DNA of 64,000 nucleotides. Source: a bacterium. GTDB taxonomy: Bacteria > Patescibacteriota > Microgenomatia > UBA10105 > UBA927. Location: the NCBI GenBank assembly GCA_021817785.1, contig JAKAFY010000003.1, forward strand, positions 4,376 to 68,375, read 5' to 3'. A program made the translations under genes and the position numbers. Below the pieces are notes generated by a model. The model was not told the DNA's origin. It saw only the letters and a list, made by a program, of their open reading frames with translations, and ran no database searches. Positions 3,357-62,519 of this stretch are shown in pieces; position 1 is the stretch's first letter, and every line of letters starts with the position of its first letter.

Positions 3357-4534
3357 TTTTTTAAATACTGTTTGCCTTTGAGCTTGTCCGGTAGCAGACT
3401 GTCGTTGCCGTATGCGTGGTATCCTTTTCCATAGTCCAGTTCCTTCATCAGTTTTGTCGGTGCGTTTCTGATGATAAGCGGTATAGGAAGGTTCCCGTGC
3501 TTTTTTACGTCGTCTACTGCCGCAAAGTATGCATCATAGGCACTCCGGTCTTTTTTCGCAAGGGACAGATACGCGACCCCGTGGGCTAAATTTTCCTGGC
3601 ACTCGGGATAGCCGATTTTGTTACACGCATCAAACACTGCGTTGGCAACGACCAGTGCGGTAGGTTGCGCGAGCCCTATGTCTTCACTGGCAAACACTAC
3701 CATACGCCGCGCGATAAACAACGGATCTTCACCGGCTGCTACCATACGCGCCAGATAGTAGAGTGCCGCATCAGGGTCGCTTGCCCGCATGCTTTTGATG
3801 AACGCGCTGATCGTATTGTAGTGTTCCTCCCCTGTGCGGTCGTACTGGAGCATTTTCCGCTGGGCTGCTTCTTCTACATCTGCTGCCGTAAGCTTTTTGC
3901 TTTTCGTGAGGGTTGCCGCTATTTCGAGTGTCGTCAGTAACGCACGCGCATCTCCGTTGGCTATTTCAAAAAGAAATTGCGCTCCCTCTTTGTCTATCGT
4001 TTTTTTGATATAGCCGAGTCCTCGTTGCATGATCTCTTCGAGTTCGGATTGTTCCAACGGCTTTAACACCAGTACCCTACATCGGGATAACAGCGGGGAT
4101 ATGACCTCAAATGACGGGTTTTCTGTGGTGGCACCGATAAAAATCACCGTCCCGTGCTCGACTGCCGGAAGCAGCGCGTCCTGCTGGGCTTTATTAAACC
4201 GGTGGATTTCGTCGATAAACAGGATCGTCCGTTTGCCGTCTCGGGTCGTCCGTTCCTCCGCTTCATGGATGACGCGGCGTACATCCGATAACGTAGACGT
4301 TACCGCTGAATGGGATTCAAAATAACTGTCGGTGAGGGTTGCCAGAAGTTCCGCGAGCGTCGTCTTGCCGCATCCCGGGGGTCCCCACAAAACCAGCGAC
4401 GGCAAAAATCCGGACGCGAGCAGTTTACGGACAATGCCCTGGTCCCCGACAAGGTGCGTTTGTCCTACGACATCGTCTAAGGACGCGGGACGAAGTATAT
4501 CGGCAAGCGGACGGCTGCTTCTTCTGTCTGTCAT
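3353..4534 (-). CDS. rarA: replication-associated recombination protein A (AAA+ ATPase RarA/MgsA)
   Basis: Walker A GPPGCGKTTLA, Walker B ILFIDEIHRFNK, MgsA C-terminal helical domain. Confidence 0.9.
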   Translation of the reverse strand: MTDRRSSRPLADILRPASLDDVVGQTHLVGDQGIVRKLLASGFLPSLVLWGPPGCGKTTLAELLATLTDSYFESHSAVTSTLSDVRRVIHEAEERTTRDGKRTILFIDEIHRFNKAQQDALLPAVEHGTVIFIGATTENPSFEVISPLLSRCRVLVLKPLEQSELEEIMQRGLGYIKKTIDKEGAQFLFEIANGDARALLTTLEIAATLTKSKKLTAADVEEAAQRKMLQYDRTGEEHYNTISAFIKSMRASDPDAALYYLARMVAAGEDPLFIARRMVVFASEDIGLAQPTALVVANAVFDACNKIGYPECQENLAHGVAYLSLAKKDRSAYDAYFAAVDDVKKHGNLPIPLIIRNAPTKLMKELDYGKGYHAYGNDSLLPDKLKGKQYLKK

Positions 4535-21296: not shown

Positions 21297-22574
21297 ATGA
21301 GTGAAGTGACCCCGGACGTACGACCTATAGGGCGTTACGAATATCCCACGCATCTCCAATGGAAGGAAACCAATCCGGCAGCTCTAGCGGAATTGGCCGC
21401 GACACTTTCCAAACACGATCTCAAACTTCCGGATCCATTGGTCGCTATGCGGGGAGGCGGCATGATGGAACCCGTAACCAATGATCTGGCGCCCCGGTAC
21501 AAAGCATTTCTGTCTAATGACCGGCCCATTGCCGTGCTACCCGTCAAGGAAGAAGCGGGCGGGAAACTTACGGATGTCGTACATTTCCCCGCGAAAAAGG
21601 AAGGCGGCGCTATCCGATTTGACGCAAATCTGGCAGCCTATAAATTTCATGTCGGGCAGTATGTGTACGAACACTGGGACAAAGCGAACGGTCCCCCGCC
21701 GCTGACCCAAGTGCGGGCAGTCGATGAATTGCCGGACGGCAGGTTTGTCACCATAGACCGGCACCGGCCGTATCTGCGCGGCATAGGCAAGGGATCGGGA
21801 ACACTGGGCATGCACGAAATGGATACGGCTCGCATCTCGCCGCAGGAAACAAGACAACTGGTACACGTGCTGGATGCCCTGCACCCTACCGTATCGGATT
21901 TCCGCACGTGGCTGTCCGATAAACAACTGGCGCTGCCCCAGGAAAGCCTGTTACACGAACACAATCCGCTGACTGCCCTGCGCGGCCAGGAATGGTGGAT
22001 AGACCCCGATGCCGGCATGGACCGGTTGCGGGAACTCGGGGCTAAAGCGGAGACGCTCCAAAAGGAATTCAGCGCGATAGATCCCGCATTTCATGCCAAA
22101 GATGCCGTCGAACAGATGATTCACAATAATGTTGGCATCTTCCCCCACCGTGACGGACACACAGATACGGCGGCTCAGGTAGCGAGTCTGCATGTCGTCC
22201 ATGGAACGCTTTACCCGGATAATATCCACAGATCGCAAACCCCGGACCGCATGAAAACGTACGTTACCGTGACCGGCGGCGACCGCGCGCACATAGGACT
22301 GGCCGGAGAATCCATCGACTGGCTCGTGTCGGCAGCTGCCGAATCCCCGGCACACCAGGAAGCGTTGATTTCCGAATTTCTGACACTGCATCCGACCGAC
22401 ACGGACAAACGCGGACTTGCCATGCATGTCCTCTACCGGACGCTTTCAGAAGCATCCTGGTTTGCCTCCCAGGGAAAAACCGCGGAACTTTCCAACCTCA
22501 CCAAATTAAGTTATGACATCATGAATGGTAACGGCGTCTGGCAGGGTGTGAATACGCCGTATAGCAGTTCATAG
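21297..22574 (+). CDS. hypothetical protein (425 aa)
   Basis: Long ORF with host-like composition; no motif recognised. Confidence 0.5.
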   Translation: MSEVTPDVRPIGRYEYPTHLQWKETNPAALAELAATLSKHDLKLPDPLVAMRGGGMMEPVTNDLAPRYKAFLSNDRPIAVLPVKEEAGGKLTDVVHFPAKKEGGAIRFDANLAAYKFHVGQYVYEHWDKANGPPPLTQVRAVDELPDGRFVTIDRHRPYLRGIGKGSGTLGMHEMDTARISPQETRQLVHVLDALHPTVSDFRTWLSDKQLALPQESLLHEHNPLTALRGQEWWIDPDAGMDRLRELGAKAETLQKEFSAIDPAFHAKDAVEQMIHNNVGIFPHRDGHTDTAAQVASLHVVHGTLYPDNIHRSQTPDRMKTYVTVTGGDRAHIGLAGESIDWLVSAAAESPAHQEALISEFLTLHPTDTDKRGLAMHVLYRTLSEASWFASQGKTAELSNLTKLSYDIMNGNGVWQGVNTPYSSS

Positions 22575-22598
22575 TTCATCGTTCATAGTTCATAGGCA
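22567..22598. repeat. heptad tandem repeat (GTTCATA)x4
   Basis: gttcatagttcatcgttcatagttcatagg right after the stop; shares the GTTCAT core with the 9-bp repeat family. Confidence 0.5.
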
Positions 22599-22706
22599 AC
22601 AGCTCGCAGATAACGCGAGAGAAATAATACCGAAGACAGGATATTTGGTTTCGCCGCAAATTTCCCCCTTGCGCCGGACCCATGGTTTCCGTTTAAATAG
22701 GTAGAT

Positions 22707-23165
22707 ATGGATAACACACCTGATGCGTCTTCTGTCCCCGATACAACTATGTCCGCAGCGCCTTCCGAAACGGTCAGCGCCGATACCGTGTTGGAGCTGG
22801 AGTCGATGATCAAACAGGGCATGACGACGATCGACCGCAATAAGTCGGAACTCAAAAAATTAAAGGAAATGATGGAAAGTGCGCTGTTAAACGATGAGCC
22901 GTACCGCACCGCCGCAGAAAAAGCGAAAGAAGCCGCCAAAGAAAAAGGGAAAGCAAAAATGAACGTGATGAGCGTGCCAGCCAACAAACAGCTTGAGGAA
23001 AAGATCAAGGACCTCACCCAGGAAAACAAGGATTTGGCGGGCGCCCAGTCCGAATACCTCCGGGAATATGCCCGATTGTCCGGCACCAACGAGATAGAAG
23101 GCGAAGACGGAGAGGTACGCGAAATCATCTATGTCGCCAAACTCGTCAAAAAAGCAAAGCGCTAA
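22707..23165 (+). CDS. hypothetical coiled-coil protein (152 aa)
   Basis: K/E-rich heptad-like sequence (ELKKLKEMMESALL...KEKGKAKM); the opposite-strand ORF is Ser-rich and looks like an antisense artefact. Confidence 0.4.
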   Translation: MDNTPDASSVPDTTMSAAPSETVSADTVLELESMIKQGMTTIDRNKSELKKLKEMMESALLNDEPYRTAAEKAKEAAKEKGKAKMNVMSVPANKQLEEKIKDLTQENKDLAGAQSEYLREYARLSGTNEIEGEDGEVREIIYVAKLVKKAKR

Positions 23166-42306: not shown

Positions 42307-43167
42307 CTACACTTCCACCGCCATACGGGCGGTGACCATATCGGTAATTTCGTATGTGATTTTTTCCTGGCGTGCTTTGTTGTACTGGAGGGTCAGTTCG
42401 TCCCGCAGGGTATTGGCGTTGTCCGTCGCGTTGTGCATGGCGATCATCTGGGCGGCATATTCGCTGGCTTCGGACTGCAAAACCGCATCCCGCAGCTGGT
42501 TTTCGACGTAATGCGGCAGTAATGACGCAAATACGTCTTCCACATTGGGCTCGATGACAAATTCGTACGTCTTTTCGCCTTCGGAGGGAAGCTCAGAACC
42601 CGACAGCGTAAGCGGCAACAAGGTCTTTTTGTGCGGAATTTGTTTGACCACGGATACGAATTCGTTGGAGACAACGTCGACGCCGTCATAGCCGCCGGAC
42701 AAAAATGACTGGATCATGAGCTCTACCACTGCCGGCACGACCTGTTCCCGCGGCGTCGTATCGGAAAAATCCGCTTTGACGCTCCGCCCCACACGGGTTA
42801 TGAAATCCGCGCCTTTTTTCCCGACCGTCATCACGTCGCAAGCATTGAGATTGGGATATTCGTGCATCAGAAACCGGAACAGCGTGGTATTGAGCCCGCC
42901 GCAGAGTCCTTTGTTCGTCGACAGCAAAATAATGAGGCGTCTGCCGGTGGGCTTGGGAGCCGTAAGCAGCGGATGGTTCCGGTAGTCCGTACGCTGGGCT
43001 AAGCGCATGACCATCTCATAGATCTTTTCGGCATACAGTTTGCCGGCGAGTGCTGCCGCCTGGGCTTTTTTCATTTTGGCCGCGGCCACCAGTTCCATGG
43101 CTTTGGTAATCTGCGATATGTTTTTGCTCGTTTTGATACGGCGTTTGATGAGACGGATATTGGCCAT
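42307..43167 (-). CDS. atpG: F1 ATP synthase gamma subunit
   Basis: MANIRLIKRRIKTSKNISQITKAMELVAAAKMKKAQ N-terminus and conserved C-terminal helix. Confidence 0.9.
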   Translation of the reverse strand: MANIRLIKRRIKTSKNISQITKAMELVAAAKMKKAQAAALAGKLYAEKIYEMVMRLAQRTDYRNHPLLTAPKPTGRRLIILLSTNKGLCGGLNTTLFRFLMHEYPNLNACDVMTVGKKGADFITRVGRSVKADFSDTTPREQVVPAVVELMIQSFLSGGYDGVDVVSNEFVSVVKQIPHKKTLLPLTLSGSELPSEGEKTYEFVIEPNVEDVFASLLPHYVENQLRDAVLQSEASEYAAQMIAMHNATDNANTLRDELTLQYNKARQEKITYEITDMVTARMAVEV

Positions 43168-43185: not shown

Positions 43186-43330
43186 TAAGTTCGTAAAGTT
43201 CATAAAGTTCGTAAAGTGAAAAAGTTCATAAAGTTCATAAAGTTCGTAAAGTTTATAAAGTTCATAAAGTGAAAAGGTTCATAAAGTTCGTAAAGTGAAA
43301 AAGTTCGTAATGTTTATAACGTTTGTAAAG
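43186..43330. repeat. 9-bp tandem repeat array A (about 16 units of AAGTTCRTA with interspersed AAGTGAAA)
   Basis: aagttcgtaaagttcataaagttcgtaaagtgaaaaagttcataaagttcataaagttcgtaaagtttataaagttcataaagtgaaaaggttcataaagttcgtaaagtgaaaaagttcgtaatgtttataacgtttgtaaag between atpA and atpG. Confidence 0.9.
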
Positions 43331-43369
43331 ACGTCCTTTATGAACGTTCAAATGTTACGAACATTTACC

Positions 43370-44881
43370 TCATAGTTTAAATGACTTCTTAAAGTCTTTG
43401 ACTGCGGATTCCAATTCCTTTTCGATTTCCGGCGTCAGGACTTTTTCCTTGGCGATCGCTTTCAGCACTTTTTTGTGGCGGCTCTCGAGATACGTGTGGA
43501 GCTGCGTTTCAAACACGGTCACCTGCGGCACCGGCACGTCATCCAGATATCCCTGGGCTCCTGCCCACATGACAGCAACCTGGAGCGCTACCGGCTGCGG
43601 CTGGTATTGTCCCTGTTTCAGAAGCTCCATCATGCGGCTTCCCCGGGCAATCTGCTTTTTGGTCGTTTCGTCTACGTCCGCCGCAAACTGGGCAAATGCT
43701 GCCAAATCGCGGTACTGCGCCAGATCCAGGCGGAGGTTGCCGGCGACTTTTTTCATGGCTTTGATCTGCGCGGATCCTCCCACACGGGATACGGAAAGCC
43801 CCACGTTGATAGCCGGACGCTGACCCGCATTGAACAAATCAGACTCGAGGTAGAGCTGCCCGTCGGTTATGGAAATGACGTTGGTCGGAATATAGGCGGA
43901 CATATCCCCTGCCTGTGTTTCGATAATGGGAAGCGCGGTAATCGACCCGCCGCCTTTTTCTGGGGACAGCCGGCACGCACGCTCAAGCAGTCTGCTATGA
44001 AGGTAAAACACGTCTCCGGGATATGCCTCGCGGCCGCTTGGGCGGCGCAGCGTCAGCGAAATCTGGCGGTATGCCCAGGCATGTTTGGACAAATCATCGT
44101 AGATGATCAACACGTCTTTTCCTTTGTTCATGAAATACTCGCCCATCGCACACCCTGCGTACGGCGCCAGATACTGGTACGTCACGGGGTCGCTGGCTGA
44201 GGCCGATACCACGATCGTATGTGCCATGGCGTTTCGTTCGGAAATATCGGCGATAACCTGGGCCACTCTGGCCGTCTTTTGGCCGATGGCGACATATATG
44301 CAGATCACTCCTTCGTCTTTTTGGTTAATGATCGTATCCACGGCAATGGCGGTTTTCCCCGTGGTGCGGTCCCCGATGATCAGCTCGCGCTGCCCGCGGC
44401 CGATGGGAATCATGGCGTCGATCGCTTTGATACCCGTCTGCAGCGGCGTATTGACCGCCTGGCGGTGTACGACTCCGGATGCGATTTGTTCCATGGGATA
44501 GCGCGTTTTGGAGGAAATCGTGCCTTTGCCGTCGATCGGCTGGCCCATCGGGTTGATCACCCGGCCCAAAAACGCCTCCCCGACGGGAACGGACAACAGA
44601 TTGCCGGTGGAGCGCACTTCATCGCCTTCTTTGATGGCCAGATAATCACCGAGTATGATGATGCCGACTTCTTCTTCCTCCAGATTTACGACCACTCCCT
44701 CGGTGCCGTTTGCAAACGTCACCAACTCGAGGTAGGAAACGTGCGGCAGCCCGGATGCTTTGGCGACACCGTCGGCAATCGTGGTCACGTAGCCCACTCT
44801 CCTGGCCCCGACGGACGATTCAAAGTTTTCCAGTTTTTTGACTAATTCTTTGGCGATAAGCGATGATACATCTGTTTTCAT
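43370..44881 (-). CDS. atpA: F1 ATP synthase alpha subunit
   Basis: P-loop GDRTTGKT, alpha-subunit signature. Confidence 0.95.
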
Positions 44882-51968: not shown

Positions 51969-52062
51969 AATAGTTTGTAAAGTTGAAAGTGTATAAAGTT
52001 TGTAACGTAATTACTTTATGAACTTTCGAACTTTATGAACTTTTTAACTTTTTTTCGCCCAT
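51969..52062. repeat. 9-bp tandem repeat array B (forward units then inverted units)
   Basis: agtttgtaaagttgaaagtgtataaagtttgtaacg | ttactttatgaactttcgaactttatgaactttttaacttttttt; overlaps the last codons and stop of gatA. Confidence 0.85.
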
Positions 52063-53816: not shown

Positions 53817-54104
53817 ATGACCAAATACCGCGAGGCCGTACAACAAATGCTCACCGAAAATAAAGAGCTTTTCGATGAATTCCGTCCGATCCATGATGCG
53901 TATATGCTAAACCCTGCGGTAAACCAGGCAAAATATAACTCCATAGGCAGTACAGTGATGGATACGATACGCGAATATGAACGCAGGCTCTGCGCCAAAA
54001 TGGGCGGCGGTATGTACAGCAAATTTTCGGCCAACCTGTCGGAAAAATTTATGGAAGAAATTAAAAAAACGTTCCCCAAGATTATGTTTATTGGAGTGGA
54101 GTGA
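53817..54104 (+). CDS. small hypothetical protein (95 aa)
   Basis: Clean ORF divergent from gatC; the opposite-strand ORF looks non-coding. Confidence 0.4.
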   Translation: MTKYREAVQQMLTENKELFDEFRPIHDAYMLNPAVNQAKYNSIGSTVMDTIREYERRLCAKMGGGMYSKFSANLSEKFMEEIKKTFPKIMFIGVE

Positions 54105-54687
54105 GCGCGCGTATATCTTCTTGAAGCTGTTTTGGATTTTCAAAAAGTATTGTATGTATTCCCAATTCTTTTGCGGGGATAAGAAAACGAGGTTTGTCAT
54201 CGATATAGATGGTTTCCTGTGGCTTTGATTTCGTTTTGGCCAAGATGAGTGTATATATGTCCGGATTTGGTTTACGTATACCAACTTCATGGGAAAATAT
54301 GCCGCCATCAAACCAGGACAGAAAATGATACTGCTGTTCAAGCCGATCGACCCGCTCTTTCACATTATCGGAAAGATAATAAGTGGCATATCGTTTTTTC
54401 AGTTGAAAGAGAAGTTCTTTTGTATCCTCTATCAATTCATACCCATGTATCCACGCTTCCTCTAGTTCTACAACAGGTTGTGATATACCAAGAATCGCTT
54501 GAAACTGTTTCCAAAACTCATCACGAGAAAGTTTTCCTTCACGATAGGCTGTCCCTATCGTACCGCTTACGACTTTTTGCACGTTATCCTCCGGAATATG
54601 AAATTTCTTGCTTACATACTCTCGAAACGCGCGGGAACCATTGGTAAAAAGCACGCCGCCGAGATCAAAGATAATTGTAGTGATCAT
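54088..54687 (-). CDS. HAD-IA hydrolase
   Basis: Motif I IIFDLGGVL, later YLSDN and IYIDDK. Confidence 0.8.
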   Translation of the reverse strand: MITTIIFDLGGVLFTNGSRAFREYVSKKFHIPEDNVQKVVSGTIGTAYREGKLSRDEFWKQFQAILGISQPVVELEEAWIHGYELIEDTKELLFQLKKRYATYYLSDNVKERVDRLEQQYHFLSWFDGGIFSHEVGIRKPNPDIYTLILAKTKSKPQETIYIDDKPRFLIPAKELGIHTILFENPKQLQEDIRALTPLQ

Positions 54688-55289
54688 ATACCCAATGCAT
54701 CTCGAATATTCTTAACTGACGAAGCAATGTTGTTTGTATCAAATACCATCCCCTGCCAGCCGCGGGATTTGACGATGGCAATATATTCTTCCACATCATC
54801 AATAAATAACATTTCTTCGGGCGAAACACCGGACGCTTGCTCTGCTAATTCAAAAATGCGAGCTTCTGGTTTGACCACTCCAACGGCCGACGAATCAATG
54901 ATCGTATGCCAGGAAATAGATGGGATAAGCCCTTTTTGCATTGCATATTTCATCGATCCGTCCTCAGCATTAGAAAGAAGCCCCAATGTGTATGTGCTTT
55001 GTAGTTCACGCACCAACGCATGCGTTTCGACAATGGGAGCATAGTGATCCGACCAAAAATCAGATGTCGAAGGAAACGGAGGATTCAATCCTAATATTTT
55101 TGCATACTCCGCCATGTATCCCAAGCCAGTAAGTTGCCCCCGTGCTGCTTTTTCCCAATGCCTTTCCAGCACCTTGTAGAGCGACTCTTCCGACACGCCG
55201 TATTTCTTCGCGACACGCGTATATCCGCCTCGCCAATCCAGTAAAACTCCACCGATATCAAAATAAATAAATTTTATGGGTTTTTTCAT
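54684..55289 (-). CDS. HAD-IA hydrolase (tandem paralogue)
   Basis: Motif I IYFDIGGVLL, FIDDVEE; overlaps the previous gene by 4 bp. Confidence 0.8.
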   Translation of the reverse strand: MKKPIKFIYFDIGGVLLDWRGGYTRVAKKYGVSEESLYKVLERHWEKAARGQLTGLGYMAEYAKILGLNPPFPSTSDFWSDHYAPIVETHALVRELQSTYTLGLLSNAEDGSMKYAMQKGLIPSISWHTIIDSSAVGVVKPEARIFELAEQASGVSPEEMLFIDDVEEYIAIVKSRGWQGMVFDTNNIASSVKNIRDALGI

Positions 55290-55293
55290 AGAT

Positions 55294-56013
55294 TTACCGA
55301 AGAATGTTGTTGGCGCTGTGCTCGAGCGAATCGTCCAATGGCGCAAGAGTACCAACAACTTTGCTAATTAACCAGTCAGCAATTTTTGGATTTTTAGGAA
55401 GCAACGGACCATGGAAATAGCAGCCGATGGTATTTTTGTATGTGGCTCCCTCGTACCCATCCTCTCCGTTATTTCCATATCCTTTGATCACTTTGGCGAG
55501 TGGCTGCATTTTAGGACCCAAATGCGTTCGACCGCCGTGGTTTTCAAAACCGACGATGATGGTGCCGGATAACTCGGCAGGCGTAATAATTTCGGCCACG
55601 GTATTGCCGATACATCGTTTTGCCTGATCTCCGGGGTGCACGGTGTAGAGATCCCATATCCCTGCTCCGGGTATAGGCTCACCCTGGTATGGTTTGTAAT
55701 AGGCTCCGACAAATTGGTATGCGGCACAGACAAAGAGCGCTGGGGTACCGTGTTCTATCATTTTTTTGACTACCGGCCCTTTGCGTTTCAGAAAATCTTC
55801 TCCCGCAAGCTTTTGCTGTCGATCCTGGGCCCCGCCCATAAAAATTAAATTACATTGTTCTAACTCTCTTACTGGCGTTTCTAGCGTTACTGGTGTTACT
55901 TGCACATGTATCCCCCGCCATACGCAGCGCTGTTGCAACACGATGACGTTCCCGCGATCGCCATACGTGGACATGAGGTCAGGGTATAACCACGCGATAC
56001 GAATAGAGTTCAT
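55294..56013 (-). CDS. gatD: lipid II isoglutaminyl synthase, glutaminase subunit (CobB/CobQ-like GATase)
   Basis: IAWLYPDLMSTYGDRGN N-terminus and GATase_3 layout; partner of murT. The start codon is supplied by the first unit of repeat array C (GTTCAT). Confidence 0.85.
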   Translation of the reverse strand: MNSIRIAWLYPDLMSTYGDRGNVIVLQQRCVWRGIHVQVTPVTLETPVRELEQCNLIFMGGAQDRQQKLAGEDFLKRKGPVVKKMIEHGTPALFVCAAYQFVGAYYKPYQGEPIPGAGIWDLYTVHPGDQAKRCIGNTVAEIITPAELSGTIIVGFENHGGRTHLGPKMQPLAKVIKGYGNNGEDGYEGATYKNTIGCYFHGPLLPKNPKIADWLISKVVGTLAPLDDSLEHSANNILR

Positions 56014-56052
56014 AAAGTTAAAAGTTAGTAACGTTTATAAAGTTTTAATAAA
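56008..56052. repeat. 9-bp tandem repeat array C
   Basis: gttcataaagttaaaagttagtaacgtttataaagttttaataaag; spans the gatD start and the 4HB gene stop. Confidence 0.8.
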
Positions 56053-56379
56053 GCCCGACAATAATCTTGATATTTCTTCGGATTTGCTGAGTAAATCATC
56101 GCGTCCTGAAGAGGTCACATATTTAAGATCACACGCAAGATATATCATCGACCGTACCTCCCCGCAGGATCCTTTTGCAATAAATAGAAAATTCTTTAAT
56201 TCTTTGTTTCCTTTCCGCTCAAATCCCTCAGCGATATTATTCATAATCGATACAGATGCTCGTTGGATCTGGTCTCGGAATCCGAAATCGCGGTTCGATC
56301 GAAACAAGTGATAGATGGTATTGGTCAACTCTTTTGCCCTTTGCCATGCAAGTATGTCTTCAAATCTATCTATTTTCAT
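56035..56379 (-). CDS. four-helix-bundle protein (23S rRNA-intervening-sequence protein family)
   Basis: ILAWQRAKELTNTIYHLFRSNRDFGFRDQIQRASVSIMNNIAEGFER...FLFIAKGSCGEV matches the TIGR02436-type pattern; flanked on both sides by 9-bp repeat arrays. Confidence 0.8.
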   Translation of the reverse strand: MKIDRFEDILAWQRAKELTNTIYHLFRSNRDFGFRDQIQRASVSIMNNIAEGFERKGNKELKNFLFIAKGSCGEVRSMIYLACDLKYVTSSGRDDLLSKSEEISRLLSGFIKTL

Positions 56380-56383
56380 ATCG

Positions 56384-56583
56384 TACTTTATAAACTTTCT
56401 AACTTTATGAACTTTACGAACTTTATGAACTTTCTCACTTTATAAACTTTATGAACTTTCCAACTTTATAAACTTTATGAACTTTTCACTTTTTCCCCTT
56501 CTCACTTTATAAACTTTCCAACTTTATAAACTTTATGAACTTTCTAACTTTATAAACTTTACGAACTTTCTCACTTTACGAAC
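56384..56583. repeat. 9-bp tandem repeat array D (about 22 units ACTTTATRA / ACTTTCYMA)
   Basis: tactttataaactttctaactttatgaactttacgaactttatgaactttctcactttataaactttatgaactttccaactttataaactttatgaacttttcactttttccccttctcactttataaactttccaactttataaactttatgaactttctaactttataaactttacgaactttctcactttacgaac. Confidence 0.9.
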
Positions 56584-57900
56584 TTATAATATCTTCTTCC
56601 CCGTGAGTATTTCCCGTATATCGAGCATCGCGGAGTACGTCGGCAGCACATACAGCGTTTGCCCTTTCGGAACTCGGGCCAGCGCATCCGTCACGGCCAT
56701 CATGAGGTTTGGTTCGATATCCATGCGTTTTGTATCTACCCCGGCGTATTTTAACCGCAGCGCCATATCGTACACGCGGTCACCGCTTACCGTAACGCGC
56801 ACGGATTTCGGAAGCGTTTCAAAATCCACATCCCAAATCCAGCTTACATCCCGGCCGTCCGGTATACGATCGTTTAATGCAAACAGAAAATACTGTCCCC
56901 GTTGTTCGATGACGGTGCGAAGCGATGCGTTAAACCCGGCCGGATTTTTGGAAAGAAATATTTTGACGGTCCTGCCGTCCATCACGATTTCTTCCTGTCT
57001 GCCGAATGCGGGTTTAAATGATTTCAGGGCGTGGGCTATATCCGTATCTCGGACGGACAACGATCCAGCCACGGCTACGGCAGCCAGCGTATTGTACTGG
57101 TTATAGAGCCCCGGCAATGGATTCGGCCAGGCAGACACGGATGGCACCGGCCGCGTATACCCGCACGCCGGACACGTCCACAAACCCAAGTGAGAAAAAT
57201 AGATGCCGTCGTAACGCAGTCTGTTGCCGCATTTCGGGCAAAAGGTCGAGTCGGTCGCATGCTCGGCTACGTTCAAAAATTTTGTCTTATCTTGGACGCC
57301 AAAGTATATGACGGTTCCCGGCACGGATTTACCCAGATATGCCACACCCGGATCATCGGCGTTTATGATGACCTGGGTTTCTTTCGGAAGCGCGGCAAAT
57401 GCCTTTTCCCATTTTTCTATGATCACGTCTACCTCACCATAGCGGTCCAGCTGATCACGAAAAAGATTCAGAACCACGATCCGCGAGGGTTTCATGTATC
57501 GGAGCACGATCGGCAGCGAATTTTCATCGACTTCAAAAATTCCGACGTCGGCGGTGATCCTCCCCAAAAAATCCGCGTGGCGGATAAACGAAGACACCAC
57601 GCCGTTTAACAAATTGGCTCCCGTGGCGTTATGGATGACGACGTCTCCCACGTGTTCCAAAATAGTCTTCAGCATAAGCGACGTAGTGGTTTTCCCGTTC
57701 GTACCGACCACGAGGATGACGCCTTTTTGAAATTCTTTGGCAAGCGACGCTGCAATATGCGGCCGCAGAGTGAGGGCGATTTCTCCCGGCCACGTGGCGC
57801 CGGCACCCAAATGGAATGTGGTACTTACAAACGAAACAAATTTTGAAAGAATGACAACGAGGCGGTCAATCAAATCCATATCCGTATTATCGCGCAACAT
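56584..57900 (-). CDS. murT: lipid II isoglutaminyl synthase, Mur-ligase-like subunit
   Basis: VVGTNGKTTTS P-loop, Cys4 ribbon CPKCG...CPACG, C-terminal DUF1727-like region; start uncertain (ATGs at 57900 and 57879; the ORF extends to 57990). Confidence 0.85.
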   Translation of the reverse strand: MLRDNTDMDLIDRLVVILSKFVSFVSTTFHLGAGATWPGEIALTLRPHIAASLAKEFQKGVILVVGTNGKTTTSLMLKTILEHVGDVVIHNATGANLLNGVVSSFIRHADFLGRITADVGIFEVDENSLPIVLRYMKPSRIVVLNLFRDQLDRYGEVDVIIEKWEKAFAALPKETQVIINADDPGVAYLGKSVPGTVIYFGVQDKTKFLNVAEHATDSTFCPKCGNRLRYDGIYFSHLGLWTCPACGYTRPVPSVSAWPNPLPGLYNQYNTLAAVAVAGSLSVRDTDIAHALKSFKPAFGRQEEIVMDGRTVKIFLSKNPAGFNASLRTVIEQRGQYFLFALNDRIPDGRDVSWIWDVDFETLPKSVRVTVSGDRVYDMALRLKYAGVDTKRMDIEPNLMMAVTDALARVPKGQTLYVLPTYSAMLDIREILTGKKIL

Positions 57901-57967: not shown

Positions 57968-58564
57968 TCATCGAATTCCCAGAGACTCACGGAGCCGTTC
58001 TACAGGATGCAAACCACCGTGAGGAAAATCAAATTCATTAACTGTCATTCCGTGAAGCCGATCCGGTAATATAATCTCTTCATCCTGCCAAAGTCGCCTC
58101 GTCACGGCAGGGTGTAGCACGCGTTGTGCGACTAAACGATCCAACGCTCCAACCGGATACCATCGCCATGGGCCATGTTTGTTAGGTTCCCGACGCTCGG
58201 GCGGAGCACCGTCTGTCGCTTCATCATAGTAGATATAAAATATTTGCATCCGACGCCAAAATCCATCTTGATTAACCTCAACTGGTGACCTATGTCTGCC
58301 GATAAGATATTCTGGACTCCATATTCTTCTTCCCGTTTCTTCTGGCATCTCACGCATGGCAGTTTGTTCAAACGTTTCTCCATCCTCCCCTTTTCCACCA
58401 GGAAGGGTAAGCAGCCCCTTATTAACTCCAAGTAAGCGTCTGGCTAGTAATACTTTTGGGTCGCTCTCTGCGTCTTTAATAGCAACAATGGCCGCCACAC
58501 GGGTTGCAAATATTCGAGGAGTCCTGACTGAGCGTTCTCTAATCATTAGCAGACATTCTATCAC
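57968..58564 (-). CDS. NUDIX hydrolase
   Basis: Nudix box LPGGKGEDGETFEQTAMREMPEETG. Confidence 0.75.
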   Translation of the reverse strand: MIECLLMIRERSVRTPRIFATRVAAIVAIKDAESDPKVLLARRLLGVNKGLLTLPGGKGEDGETFEQTAMREMPEETGRRIWSPEYLIGRHRSPVEVNQDGFWRRMQIFYIYYDEATDGAPPERREPNKHGPWRWYPVGALDRLVAQRVLHPAVTRRLWQDEEIILPDRLHGMTVNEFDFPHGGLHPVERLRESLGIR

Positions 58565-60093: not shown

Positions 60094-60651
60094 TTAGAAG
60101 TTCACTTTCACTGCTTTCCGATCTTCGTCGCTCGCCCCAAAAAATTGCTTTTCGCCGAATCCTAACTGGCTGGCAATCATGGAATTCGGGAAGACTTTGA
60201 TTTTGACGTTGTAGTCCATCACCGTTGAATTGTAGTACTGGCGGCTGTAGGCTACTTTGTCTTCCGTATCGGAAAGCTCTTTCTGAAGCTGCAAAAATTC
60301 ATCATTTGCCTTCAGATCCGGGTAGGCTTCTGCCACGGCAAAGAGTTTGCCGAGTGCGCCGCTTAACGCGTCGCTAGCCTGCGCTTTTCCTGCCATCGTG
60401 GATGCACCCATGAGGGCACTCCGGGCCTTCGTAACATCGGAAAACACGCTTTTTTCATGCTTGGCATAGCCTTTCACCGTTTCCACCAGGTTCGGGATCA
60501 GGTCAGCCCGGCGTTTAAGCTGGACATCGATCTGGCTCCATGCTTCATCTATCGCCATCTTCATCGAGATCAAGCCGTTATAGAGCGACCATACATAGAG
60601 GGCAAGAAGTACTACTATTCCTCCGACGATCCAAAATGTATTCATATACAT
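60094..60651 (-). CDS. lemA: LemA-family protein
   Basis: N-terminal TM plus LemA core (DEAWSQIDVQLKRRADLIPNLVETVKGY); strong AGGAGGAGGA RBS. Confidence 0.85.
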   Translation of the reverse strand: MYMNTFWIVGGIVVLLALYVWSLYNGLISMKMAIDEAWSQIDVQLKRRADLIPNLVETVKGYAKHEKSVFSDVTKARSALMGASTMAGKAQASDALSGALGKLFAVAEAYPDLKANDEFLQLQKELSDTEDKVAYSRQYYNSTVMDYNVKIKVFPNSMIASQLGFGEKQFFGASDEDRKAVKVNF

Positions 60652-60663
60652 CCTCCTCCTACG

Positions 60664-60737
60664 TTGAAAGTTTATAAAGTTTCAAGTTTTTAACCTTATG
60701 AACTTTATGAACTTTATGAACTTTCGAACTTATTATG
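60664..60737. repeat. 9-bp tandem repeat array E (forward then inverted units)
   Basis: ttgaaagtttataaagtttcaagtttttaaccttatgaactttatgaactttatgaactttcgaacttattatg; encodes the polX C-terminus KFESS*. Confidence 0.85.
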
Positions 60738-62519
60738 TAACCAACCGTTAAATTTATTATACTCCAGCGTGTTTACGATGTCATGTTTCGTGCTCCACCC
60801 GCGTCGTGCCACCGATACGCCGTAGCGCATGAGCGTCATGTGCTCCGCAGCATGCGCGTCCGTGTCTATACAAAAGCGGATGCCCATGTTGCGGGCGTCA
60901 TACACCAATGTGTCGGGCAGATCCAGTCGTTCGGGGTATGCGTTTATTTCCAGCGCGATATCGTGTTGTTTTACCACCTCAAAGACGGCGGGCCAGTCCG
61001 CATCTATGCCTTCCCTGCTTCCCAGTAGTCTTCCGGTAGGATGCCCGAAGATCCGGACCTTTGGGTGGGCAGTCAACGCCCGGATCAATCGTGCAGTCAC
61101 GACCTCTCGTGGTTGCGTAAACGCGGAATGGACGGAAACGATGACGGCATCCACATATTCCAGTGCCTCATCCGGCAGAGCGAGTCTTCCGTCAGGCAGT
61201 ATATCCACTTCGCACATGAGGAAATAATGTGTTCGTCCTTTCACGCGGTCTTTCCACGAGGAATATTGGTGTTCATATGCAAGCCTCCGGCGCTTCATTA
61301 TGTCAACAATCTGTTGCTTCGTGTGGTTCGTTATTCCGGGATTATGATCGGAAAATCCGATGTACTCGTACCCCAGGCGTTCTGCCGTCGTCAGCAATTC
61401 CCCTATGGAATCCTTTCCCAAATCATGGGATGGCTCCAGATCATAATTGGAATGCGTATGCAGATCGCCGCGGATATCGCCAAGCTCGACAAGATCCGGC
61501 AATCCGCTGGGTCTCCCCTGTGCCCGACACAGAGAAGCGGATATCTCTCCGCGGTCTTCCCGCAGTTCAGGAGGTATATAGGTCAGCCCGATTGCTTTAT
61601 AAAACGACTCTTCGGTTTCATATTCGGTGAGTTTTCCGGTACGTACGGATTTTATGCCGTGTTCGGAAAGGGACAGTCCCCGGGATAACGCCAGCTCGCG
61701 AAGCTGTATATTGTGGTTTTTGGACCCGGTAAAGTACTGAAGCATGGCGCCGTACGCTTTCGGCGACTGTACCCGCAAATCTGCCTGTCTGCCGTTTGTC
61801 AAAAGCAGCGTCGCCCCGCGCGTACCCTGATCCACGATGCGCTGATGCGGAAACGAAACAAATTGTTCGATGATCGTTTGTGGCTCAGTCGTGGCTACTG
61901 CTATATCGATATCCCCGATCGTCGATACCTGCCTGCGCAGACTCCCCAACACGTCATATCGGGTGGCTTTTCCTTTCTTTTTTAGGTGAGCGATAAGTTC
62001 CTGCGCGATTTGGTCAGCATACGGCAATGGCATCCGGTTTTCTTTGATCTGCCCGCGCTTATAGATGGCTATAGACTCCAGGATGACACCCTGCGACTTC
62101 TCGCCGAATCCCTCAAGCGGCGCTATTTTCCCGGATTTTGCCGCTTTTTCGAGGTCGGAAACGACGGTTTTTGCGTTATCGAGCTTCAGCGTGGTTACCA
62201 ATGTGTATGCTTTCTTGGGGCCGATACCGGGAACCAGCAGCAATGGAAATATTGCCTGTGGTACTTTTGCGAACACACTCTCCCAATGTTTGGACTTGCC
62301 GGTTTTAAACAATTCATCCAGATTACTGGCGATTCCTCCTCCCACACCGGGGATATCTTCCAGTTTTCCATCATCCCACATGTCTTTGACGTCACTCGTC
62401 AGATGTTCGATGCTGTCGGCAGCCCGTTCATAGGCAATGATACGGAATCTGTTTTCGTTCAGGACTAAGTATGCCGCGGCTACTTTACGAAGCAATTGTG
62501 CGATCTCTAGATTGGTCAT
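60714..62519 (-). CDS. polX: family X DNA polymerase with C-terminal PHP domain
   Basis: N-terminal HhH/8-kDa and pol-beta-like palm (GSLRRQVSTIGDIDIAV), C-terminal PHP (HTHSNYD...). Confidence 0.9.
   Translation of the reverse strand: MTNLEIAQLLRKVAAAYLVLNENRFRIIAYERAADSIEHLTSDVKDMWDDGKLEDIPGVGGGIASNLDELFKTGKSKHWESVFAKVPQAIFPLLLVPGIGPKKAYTLVTTLKLDNAKTVVSDLEKAAKSGKIAPLEGFGEKSQGVILESIAIYKRGQIKENRMPLPYADQIAQELIAHLKKKGKATRYDVLGSLRRQVSTIGDIDIAVATTEPQTIIEQFVSFPHQRIVDQGTRGATLLLTNGRQADLRVQSPKAYGAMLQYFTGSKNHNIQLRELALSRGLSLSEHGIKSVRTGKLTEYETEESFYKAIGLTYIPPELREDRGEISASLCRAQGRPSGLPDLVELGDIRGDLHTHSNYDLEPSHDLGKDSIGELLTTAERLGYEYIGFSDHNPGITNHTKQQIVDIMKRRRLAYEHQYSSWKDRVKGRTHYFLMCEVDILPDGRLALPDEALEYVDAVIVSVHSAFTQPREVVTARLIRALTAHPKVRIFGHPTGRLLGSREGIDADWPAVFEVVKQHDIALEINAYPERLDLPDTLVYDARNMGIRFCIDTDAHAAEHMTLMRYGVSVARRGWSTKHDIVNTLEYNKFNGWLHNKFESS

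Follow-up and report, generated by a model that had tools for sequence, protein, structure and literature searches.

Known systems and the locus studied

To our knowledge, the proteins encoded by the intervening sequences (IVSs) of 23S rRNA have had no known function since the early 1990s. We describe here a gene of this four-helix-bundle (4HB) family which lies between murT and gatD in a 64,000-nt stretch of a Gottesmanbacteria-like patescibacterial contig (JAKAFY010000003.1), referred to below as the window; coordinates are positions in the window, and 'L' followed by a number denotes a fetched comparison locus or assembly contig. The gene and the tandem repeat arrays on both of its sides form one unit, and the reading which we favour, at a probability of roughly 0.6, is that of an IVS-type stem–loop cassette living in an mRNA operon instead of in ribosomal RNA.

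The closest described systems are the rRNA IVSs with a 4HB ('S23p') open reading frame (ORF) in Leptospira, Coxiella, Xanthomonas and Azospirillum, which encode proteins of the same family and have complementary ends forming a stem of ~30 bp. The Coxiella IVS contains tandem GACAGAT heptamers upstream of the ORF and a 28-bp terminal stem, and is excised by RNase III (PMC4990558). The arm units of the Azospirillum 23S IVS are GGACAGA and GGACGGA. The arms of the window element are likewise made of short tandem units, and ORF-less variants exist of both the IVSs and the window element. The host RNA is different: a protein-coding operon here, as opposed to helix 25 or 45 of 23S rRNA. There is no rRNA in the window, in which Rfam finds only four tRNAs, and the cassette therefore lacks the location by which IVSs are defined; also, none of the 40 related loci searched lies inside an rRNA gene. 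The window arms differ further in that they supply stop and start codons of the neighbouring genes and have a unit core of AAAGT, and the ORF of the window family is under purifying selection, whereas that of the Coxiella IVS is reported to be decaying.

The Avd protein of diversity-generating retroelements (DGRs; PDB 4DWL, 8UB7) is a basic protein with a homologous four-helix-bundle fold, and forms a pentameric ring in an RNA–protein complex. Its identity to the window protein is only 14–16%, however, and the window contains no template repeat, variable repeat or reverse transcriptase; because the last is missing from the window, the 4HB is not a DGR Avd. In the repetitive extragenic palindromic (REP)/REPIN system with its RAYT gene, the work of Nunvar (2010) and of Bertels and Rainey (2011), a gene is reportedly flanked by inverted short repeats and gene-less hairpins are said to be scattered between genes. 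The window genome similarly contains a repeat-flanked gene together with gene-less hairpin copies. On the other hand, RAYT is Y1 transposase-like and 4HB has no catalytic motif, REPs are single palindromes and not tandem 7–9-mers, and the gene-less copies of the window element are rare outside the window genome. The short tandemly repeated repetitive (STRR) sequences of cyanobacteria are said to be tandem heptamer arrays in intergenic spacers (Mazel, 1990, reportedly). In Nostoc and Trichormus, inverted heptamer arrays lie on either side of the 4HB genes, the consensus units of STRR being unlike those of the window; no description of a link between STRR and 4HB genes was found in the searchable literature.

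Genes of the family (23S_rRNA_IVP) have also been found in cas operons, in Pleurocapsa for example between cmr3 and cmr2, which was read as a functional CRISPR association (PMC3936711); their presence between cas genes has been read in the same way elsewhere (PMC10910872). In the former case, too, a 4HB gene is wedged into a tight operon; its flanking arrays are not described, and the host operon in the window is one for cell wall precursors. In a Picosynechococcus plasmid the order is Cmr2/4HB/Cmr3. Apart from the Coxiella heptamers, no description of flanking arrays was found in the searchable literature, most subscription journals lying outside its scope. The occurrence of 4HB genes in unrelated operons (cas, DGR, par, nrd and now murT–gatD) has so far been read as functional association; our results suggest a simpler rule, according to which the 4HB gene travels with two complementary tandem arrays and sits exactly between a stop and a start codon. 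This is a warning against annotating 4HB genes as CRISPR or DGR components through guilt by association, and a possible origin is offered for repeat hairpins in operon spacers.

Organisation of the cassette

The unit is composed of a purine-rich 5′ array of 7–9-mers with an AAAGT core, the 4HB ORF and a complementary 3′ array with an ACTTT core. It is located at the exact junction of the murT stop and the gatD start, and three codons, namely the stops of murT and 4HB and the start of gatD, are provided by its arms. The same design is found around most members of the protein family, including one in a genuine 23S rRNA intervening sequence. The order on the minus strand, in the sense of the mRNA (used throughout), is murT, a 200-bp array, the 4HB ORF, an array of ~45 nt and gatD:

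56584–57900, minus strand: murT, lipid II isoglutaminyl synthase ligase subunit (PF08353, E=1.4e-33; PF08245, E=1.2e-15; NF045635, E=2e-75)
56385–56585, minus strand: 5′ arm, long array (Tandem Repeats Finder, word enrichment, composition)
56035–56379, minus strand: 4HB gene, 114 aa, PF05635/TIGR02436 (profile HMMs, fold model)
56008–56050, minus strand: 3′ arm, short array of ~45 nt (direct reading; reverse complement of the 5′ arm units)
55294–56013, minus strand: gatD, glutamine amidotransferase subunit (PF07685, E=5e-31; NF052463, E=8e-53)

Tandem Repeats Finder reports the region 56385–56585 with a period of 9 and 23.4 copies and, inside it, an 84-bp block in 1.9 copies of 91% identity, a recent duplication. 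The units of this long array are 7–9 nt in length and share the AAAGT core (AAAGTTCAT, AAAGTTCGT, AAAGTTTAT, AAAGTGAGA and others); its GC content is 25%. The window contains 14 exact copies of the word AAAGTTCAT, compared with 0.6 expected, a count reached by none of 100 shuffles. The short array contains ACTTT-core units (AAAACTTTATAAACGTTACTAACTTTTAACTTTATGAACTCT) and is weak when taken alone: Tandem Repeats Finder does not list it, and it has three ACTTT cores and a degenerate ACGTT. Its size and position are those of the 3′ arms of homologues (median 4 units, about 30 nt). The first-pass annotation, made from the sequence only, had described the gene as bracketed by arrays of 45 and 200 bp. 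Both arrays are present, but they are not copies of one direct array: with AAAGT upstream and ACTTT downstream of the 4HB gene, they are in opposite orientation and constitute inverted repeats. Since they are the inverted arms of one hairpin-like element, the element matches the design of the rRNA IVSs.

Concerning the codons, the TAA stop of murT (56586–56584) is the first triplet of the long array (TAAGTTCGTAAAGT), the last codons and stop of the 4HB gene (AAA ACT TTA TAA) make up the first ACTTT unit of the short array, and the last unit of the short array (ACTTTATGAACTCT) contains the gatD ATG, the array also overlapping the first codons of gatD. The same annotation had the arrays supplying the 4HB stop and the gatD ATG, and both codons do lie inside units; the idea that the gatD ATGAAC is supplied wholly by the element had to be softened, as it is shared by two relatives without 4HB (L010 and L017). 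The alignment of GatD to NF052463 begins at residue 4, which supports the ATG at 56013; the public gene calls disagree on the length of the protein (181 vs 239 aa). MurT has 438 aa in public gene calls, and an alternative GTG start is found at 57990.

The sequence of the locus is identical across the ENA, two NCBI and the Logan assemblies. Within the 200-bp array, three Logan contigs (L004, L006 and L007) share a starting point, 104 nt before the 4HB ATG; because they break at the duplicated 84-bp block, the assembled length of 200 bp has to be taken with caution. No promoter-like or terminator-like consensus was found in a scan of 55900–56700, and Rfam has no family for the arms or the whole cassette (window at gathering thresholds; 55900–56700 at E≤5). 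There is no second 4HB gene within the window.

The 4HB protein

The 114-aa protein matches PF05635 (E=4.8e-32, 110.8 bits against a cutoff of 33.8), residues 7–109 covering profile positions 1–106 of 106, and TIGR02436 (E=1.2e-31, 109.1 bits against a cutoff of 24). The AlphaFold2 model has a pLDDT of 96 and four helices (residues 10–25, 32–54, 58–84 and 90–113). Foldseek gives the model TM-scores of 0.90 to 2GSC (XCC0516), 0.83 to 2RLD (BT_0352) and 0.78 to Avd (4DWL); 2GSC is also matched in sequence (E=1.5e-11), and the crystal structures 2GSC and 2RLD both have five chains. The family motif is given as (G)xxRxxxSxxxNxxE (Lin 2006, in the form in which PMC3936711 cites it). Its residues R40, S44, N48 and E51 are invariant in 28 homologues, and the leading G is replaced by Q37 in the clade of the window protein. 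Profiles, fold and motif agree with the family assignment of the first-pass annotation. The protein is basic (pI 9.2; family median 9.0). The family is under purifying selection, with pN of 0.15–0.23 against pS of 0.8–0.9 and 75 of 81 ORFs intact. PADLOC and PHROGs contain no match, and the protein is not a recognisable defence gene product.

Arms of the 4HB homologues

Close homologues were analysed in 80 metagenome loci, the proteins of which are 60–76% identical. For the 71 loci with enough flank, the upstream 200 nt were aligned to the reverse-complemented downstream 200 nt, and this inverted arrangement has a median score of 39, as opposed to 18–19 when flanks are in direct orientation or shuffled. 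Almost always, the arms consist of tandem units whose core is AAAGT on the upstream and ACTTT on the downstream side. When arms are defined as at least three AAAG[TG] within 120 nt upstream and at least three [AC]CTTT within 120 nt downstream, 80% of 69 4HB genes have them, as opposed to 0 of 154 other genes located on the same contigs. 4HB and control genes also differ in their inverted-flank scores (Mann–Whitney p=2e-23). Inverted arms occur in 72–80% of homologues. Based on array counts, 388 kb of 4HB loci contain 173 arrays, including 54 array pairs one ORF length apart; unselected Patescibacteria loci have 6 arrays in 379 kb, and loci of other phyla 2 in 499 kb. The tie between the 4HB family and a type of repeat, which the first-pass annotation had proposed from this one locus, is borne out by the 80% against 0 of 154 and by the eight distant homologues described below.

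The units are spaced by 7 or 9 nt, and the arms have a median of 4 units (interquartile range 4–6), or ~31 nt; the 200-bp arm of the window cassette is an outlier in length. The dominant unit class is the same in both arms in 39 of 60 loci, with 21.5 expected. Unit class shows no co-evolution with protein sequence (identity 0.654 within and 0.660 between classes). Looking at the neighbouring genes, a same-strand ORF is found upstream in 51 of 51 and downstream in 46 of 51 loci with enough flank. The first repeat core begins a median of 5.5 nt past the upstream stop, and the downstream start follows the last core by a median of 10 nt; 13 of the 46 downstream ORFs have their start codon in the context CTTTATG.

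Distant homologues (29–46% identity; on plasmids or chromids) all have a purine-rich 5′ tandem array and a complementary 3′ array (8/8), with lineage-specific units (GGGAAAA/TTTTCCC, TAGGGAG/CTCCCTA, AAGGAGATA/TATCTCCTT, GGGCAGGA/TCCTGCCC and GGACAGA/TCTGTCC). Their host sites include Cmr2/Cmr3, ParA/ParB, the two nrd genes and an operon for type IV secretion (T4SS), and one of the eight lies inside the 23S rRNA gene of Azospirillum lipoferum, as confirmed by Rfam. Segatella hominis (Bacteroidota; L168–L173) contains a 4HB copy of 68% identity with AAAGT/ACTTT arms, located between bAvd and the reverse transcriptase gene of a DGR. Of the two PF05635-type genes which thus adjoin each other, one alone has arms, bAvd being without an upstream array. 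Because the armed 4HB adjoins a separate bAvd which lacks upstream arrays, an insertion of 4HB into the Segatella DGR operon is suggested as well.

In L171 (2618–5050), this gut DGR (target gene, bAvd, reverse transcriptase) with its armed 4HB cassette is accompanied by an ORF-less hairpin downstream, at 3450–3530. Two loci depart from the inverted arrangement. L165 (2850–5300) has two cassettes, each in front of an FtsX-like permease gene, the second with a 5′ arm of AAAGG type. In L107 (780–2250 and 3650–4450), two tandem 4HB genes lie in long same-direction GACTTT arrays, and a third 4HB, 42% identical, is embedded in direct arrays of CTGAYAAC type.

The murT–gatD insertion and its age

MurT loci were fetched from species-representative genomes (80 loci, 79 of which have a gatD match). 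The gap between murT and gatD is at most 129 nt in 71 of these 79. The 4HB ORF has a GC content of 38% and a third-position GC content (GC3) of 38%, compared with 52.5 ± 2.7% and 60 ± 7% for the long ORFs of the window. In the nearest relatives, L008 (MurT identity 68%) and L009 (66%), the stop of murT and the start of gatD overlap (TTATGA, sharing ATGA) and there is no 4HB gene, which shows that the cassette is an insertion. Both edges of the element have TTAT; if the sequence between the two copies were deleted, the ATGA overlap would be re-established.

The arrangement murT–4HB–gatD is found in six relatives (L088, L089, L090, L111, L116 and L031), and all six have arms. In the MurT and GatD trees, genomes with 4HB at the junction are interspersed with empty-site genomes. 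The 4HB tree groups six of the seven junction copies into a single clade, L031 being the only one placed elsewhere. The insertion is old, given that six junction 4HBs form one clade and that synonymous sites are saturated (pS 0.8–0.9). These data are most simply read as one ancient insertion with later losses and/or lateral spread via the conserved flanking genes, and with an independent hit in L031, the 4HB protein being retained by selection throughout. The insertion is common to a clade of Gottesmanbacteria-like genomes and was elsewhere lost or never present; it is not a recent delivery. The first-pass annotation had taken the gene for an insert wedged into a normally tight pair and delivered together with, or by means of, the repeats. 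The short gaps, the GC contrast and the empty sites are in line with the wedge, and no relative was found to have the three-gene arrangement without repeats; the arrays are part of the cassette and not a demonstrated vehicle.

Other inserts are found at the same junction (L025, 1428–2099; L033, 7230–8233; L040, 7392–8847; also L042, L065 and L077). They comprise a Y1 transposase of IS200-like type in antisense orientation (PF01797, E=3e-24), a phosphotransferase of APH type (PF01636) and a 480-aa membrane protein without Pfam match, and three non-Patescibacteria loci have long antisense ORFs at the junction. Short murT–gatD spacers with unrelated palindromes occur in L010 (e.g. ATACTCTAATGAATCGATTCATTAGAGTAT), L011, L012, L014, L022, L028, L039 and L060, and a spacer element GTCATTGCGAG...CTCGCAATGAC recurs, clear in L012 and L060 and similar in L014. 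Hairpin elements in general seem to land preferentially at this junction. The MurT and GatD proteins of several contigs titled 'uncultured Gammaproteobacteria bacterium' (L009, L010, L014 and others) cluster among Gottesmanbacteria and other Patescibacteria, and the taxonomy of those records looks wrong.

ORF-less hairpins

The other AAAGTTCAT arrays of the window are likewise two-armed. They belong to three further elements which consist of an AAAGT arm followed by an ACTTT arm with no ORF between them, each occupying the stop-to-start spacer of neighbouring genes identified by Pfam:

51975–52054, no strand assigned: gatA/gatB hairpin, filling the stop-to-start spacer (fold z-score −4.5 on the minus and −6.2 on the plus strand)
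60664–60731, no strand assigned: polX/lemA hairpin, between the polX stop at 60714 and the lemA start at 60651
43187–43370, no strand assigned: atpA/atpG hairpin, between the atpA stop at 43370 and the atpG start at 43167 (fold z-score of the inner part −3.6)

The fold z-scores of the ORF-less hairpins range from −3.6 to −6.7. The atpA/atpG hairpin has a 137-bp AAAGT array, a GACGTC loop and a degenerate ACGTT/ACATT arm of ~35 nt, and so shows the same asymmetry of arms as the 4HB cassette. Elsewhere, only 3 ORF-less hairpins were found in 388 kb of 4HB loci; as such copies are this rare in other loci, the window genome seems to have multiplied them.

The polX/lemA hairpin (window ~60640–60740) corresponds to L001 5560–5760 and L002 1850–2030, from two assemblies of one population, in which different upstream genes are joined to the same hairpin and lemA: LytR_C in L001, and PolX in L002 as in the window. 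The point of divergence coincides exactly with the 5′ arm's outer edge, and the window does not contain the upstream 5.7 kb of L001; either the repeat was the site of a real rearrangement, or there is a mis-join.

Predicted stem and favoured explanation

When the 596-nt RNA which spans the cassette is folded, the minimum-free-energy and the centroid structure both contain a long-range stem of 42 bp, divided into five helical segments. Its strands are:

56537–56584, minus strand: predicted 5′ strand of the stem (nt 7–54 of the 596-nt RNA)
56007–56056, minus strand: predicted 3′ strand of the stem (nt 535–584 of the 596-nt RNA)

The pairing of nt 7–54 with nt 535–584 loops out the rest of the long array and the entire 4HB ORF. 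The murT stop (nt 5–7) is at the foot of the predicted stem, the 5′ strand beginning at its last base, and the gatD AUG (nt 578–580) pairs with nt 11–13.

According to the explanation which we favour, the cassette would be co-transcribed with murT and gatD by read-through from murT. Its arms would pair in the transcript into a stem of ~42 bp which loops out the 4HB ORF and at whose base the stop of murT and the start of gatD come together. The insertion may then be tolerated for one of two reasons: translational coupling would persist and stand in for the ATGA overlap that was lost, or RNase III would cleave the stem in the way known from rRNA IVSs. It is more speculative that the basic and probably pentameric 4HB, a homologue of the RNA-binding Avd ring, acts on the repeated arms. 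Pairing explains neither why the AAAG core is conserved across phyla nor why the purine-rich arm comes first, which leaves room for a sequence-specific partner; the basic 4HB ring, as a homologue of the Avd pentamer, would be the obvious candidate.

Several observations weigh against a paired, transcribed stem–loop. The fold z-score of the whole region is only −2.1, and stem formation and RNase III cutting are both predictions from folding and from the rRNA case. In the strand-of-action test, the mismatches between arms comprise 43 G:U and 46 A:C with no excess of G:U, and two of the ORF-less hairpins fold better on the antisense strand; for these two reasons, a role of the inverted arrays at the DNA level fits equally well. 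The AAAG core is conserved despite saturated synonymous sites, and pairing alone does not account for this. The 5′ arm is 200 bp long and its partner 45 nt, so most of it has no pairing partner. The gatD start ('MN..') may be partly ancestral, since the 4HB-less L010 and L017 also begin with ATGAAC. The arrays of L107 are in direct orientation on both sides, and L123 and L149 have no clear arms. The 64-kb window contains no RNase III gene, which says nothing about the rest of the genome. Recognition of the units by the protein, in its simple form, is disfavoured as unit class is unrelated to protein similarity.

A wider generalisation is possible, although we hold it to be doubtful as a whole. 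IVS-type 4HB cassettes could be one widespread class of elements colonising operon stop/start junctions and rRNA helices, with arms that would make the insertion phenotypically silent by supplying codons and re-joining the flanks through the stem. The 4HB ring may recognise the units, each subunit reading one, and thereby govern the pairing of the arms, processing or propagation, and ORF-less hairpins, possibly also the STRR heptamers, would be derivatives.

Alternative explanations

An explanation which is unlikely but deserves serious weight takes the arms for protein-binding sites, in RNA or DNA, of the pentameric 4HB ring or of a host factor, in the manner of the TRAP ring and its spaced triplets. 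The protein would regulate its own expression or maintain the element, the inverted symmetry would provide two binding platforms, and tandem AAAGUUCAU or AAAGTTCAT would be the candidate target units. The AAAG core kept across phyla in spite of saturated synonymous sites in the ORF, the narrow spacing of 7 or 9 nt and the lack of a strand-specific wobble signal between arms are in its favour; the median of 4 units per arm (4–6) is also close to the five subunits of 2GSC and 2RLD, the median pI of the family is 9.0, and the homologue Avd is found in an RNA–protein complex (PDB 8UB7 and others). If the protein recognised the units, unit class would be expected to track protein similarity, which it does not (0.654 vs 0.660), and distant homologues have quite different units. 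The arms of one element co-vary, which pairing explains directly, and the binding data are confined to DGR members of the family. We consider it distinctly improbable that the arms are the terminal inverted repeats of a mobile DNA element moved by 4HB or by an unlinked enzyme, of which the ORF-less hairpins would be non-autonomous copies, similar to REPINs or to MITEs (miniature transposable elements with inverted repeats). The presence within 64 kb of one ORF-bearing and three ORF-less copies built from the same units points in this direction, as do the patchy distribution at murT/gatD with L031 as a second, independent hit at the junction, the cassettes of 68% identity in both Patescibacteria and Bacteroidota, and the structural difference between assemblies (L001/L002) which breaks at an arm edge. 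The TTAT at both edges, between whose copies a deletion would restore ATGA, could be added to these, but it is too short and too expected locally for a target duplication. The 4HB protein has no known catalytic fold and no transposase is nearby, ORF-less hairpins are rare elsewhere (3 in 388 kb), no identical copies are seen at different sites, and the synonymous saturation of the junction copies indicates long residence and not recent movement.

The stem–loop cassette remains our preferred reading also with respect to two explanations in which gene and repeats have nothing to do with each other. It is very improbable that the gene encodes an accessory protein, either of DGRs (Avd) or linked to CRISPR, and that the repeats are unrelated to it. 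The fold is Avd-like (TM-score 0.78), a Segatella copy is located inside a DGR, and the family is reported from cas loci and the vicinity of DGRs (PMC3936711, PMC10910872, PMC10053308). In the window, however, a tblastn search with DGR reverse transcriptase finds none (best E=1.2), the neighbours are housekeeping genes, and PADLOC and PHROGs give no match; in Segatella, bAvd lacks upstream arrays and is separate from the adjoining armed 4HB. The tight tie of repeats to the 4HB gene (80% vs 0/154, and array density) is also at odds with unrelated repeats, and it makes coincidence, in which the AAAGTTCAT arrays are ordinary intergenic simple repeats beside an unrelated gene or an artefact of assembly, hardly credible. 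Similar arrays do occur at other junctions of the window without 4HB, and three Logan contigs break in the long array; arrays are nevertheless about 30 times denser in 4HB loci, none of the 154 controls has such flanks, and independent assemblies have an identical locus sequence.

Neighbouring genes and other repeats

Downstream of gatD, two adjacent paralogues of HAD-family hydrolases are found at 54088–55358. Their GC content (41–45%) and GC3 (35–42%) are low against the window average. A one-sided AGTTCAT array of ~4 copies, with no inverted partner array, is located at 22566–22595, between two convergent ORFs without Pfam match (21297–22574, plus strand, and 22583–23128, minus strand).

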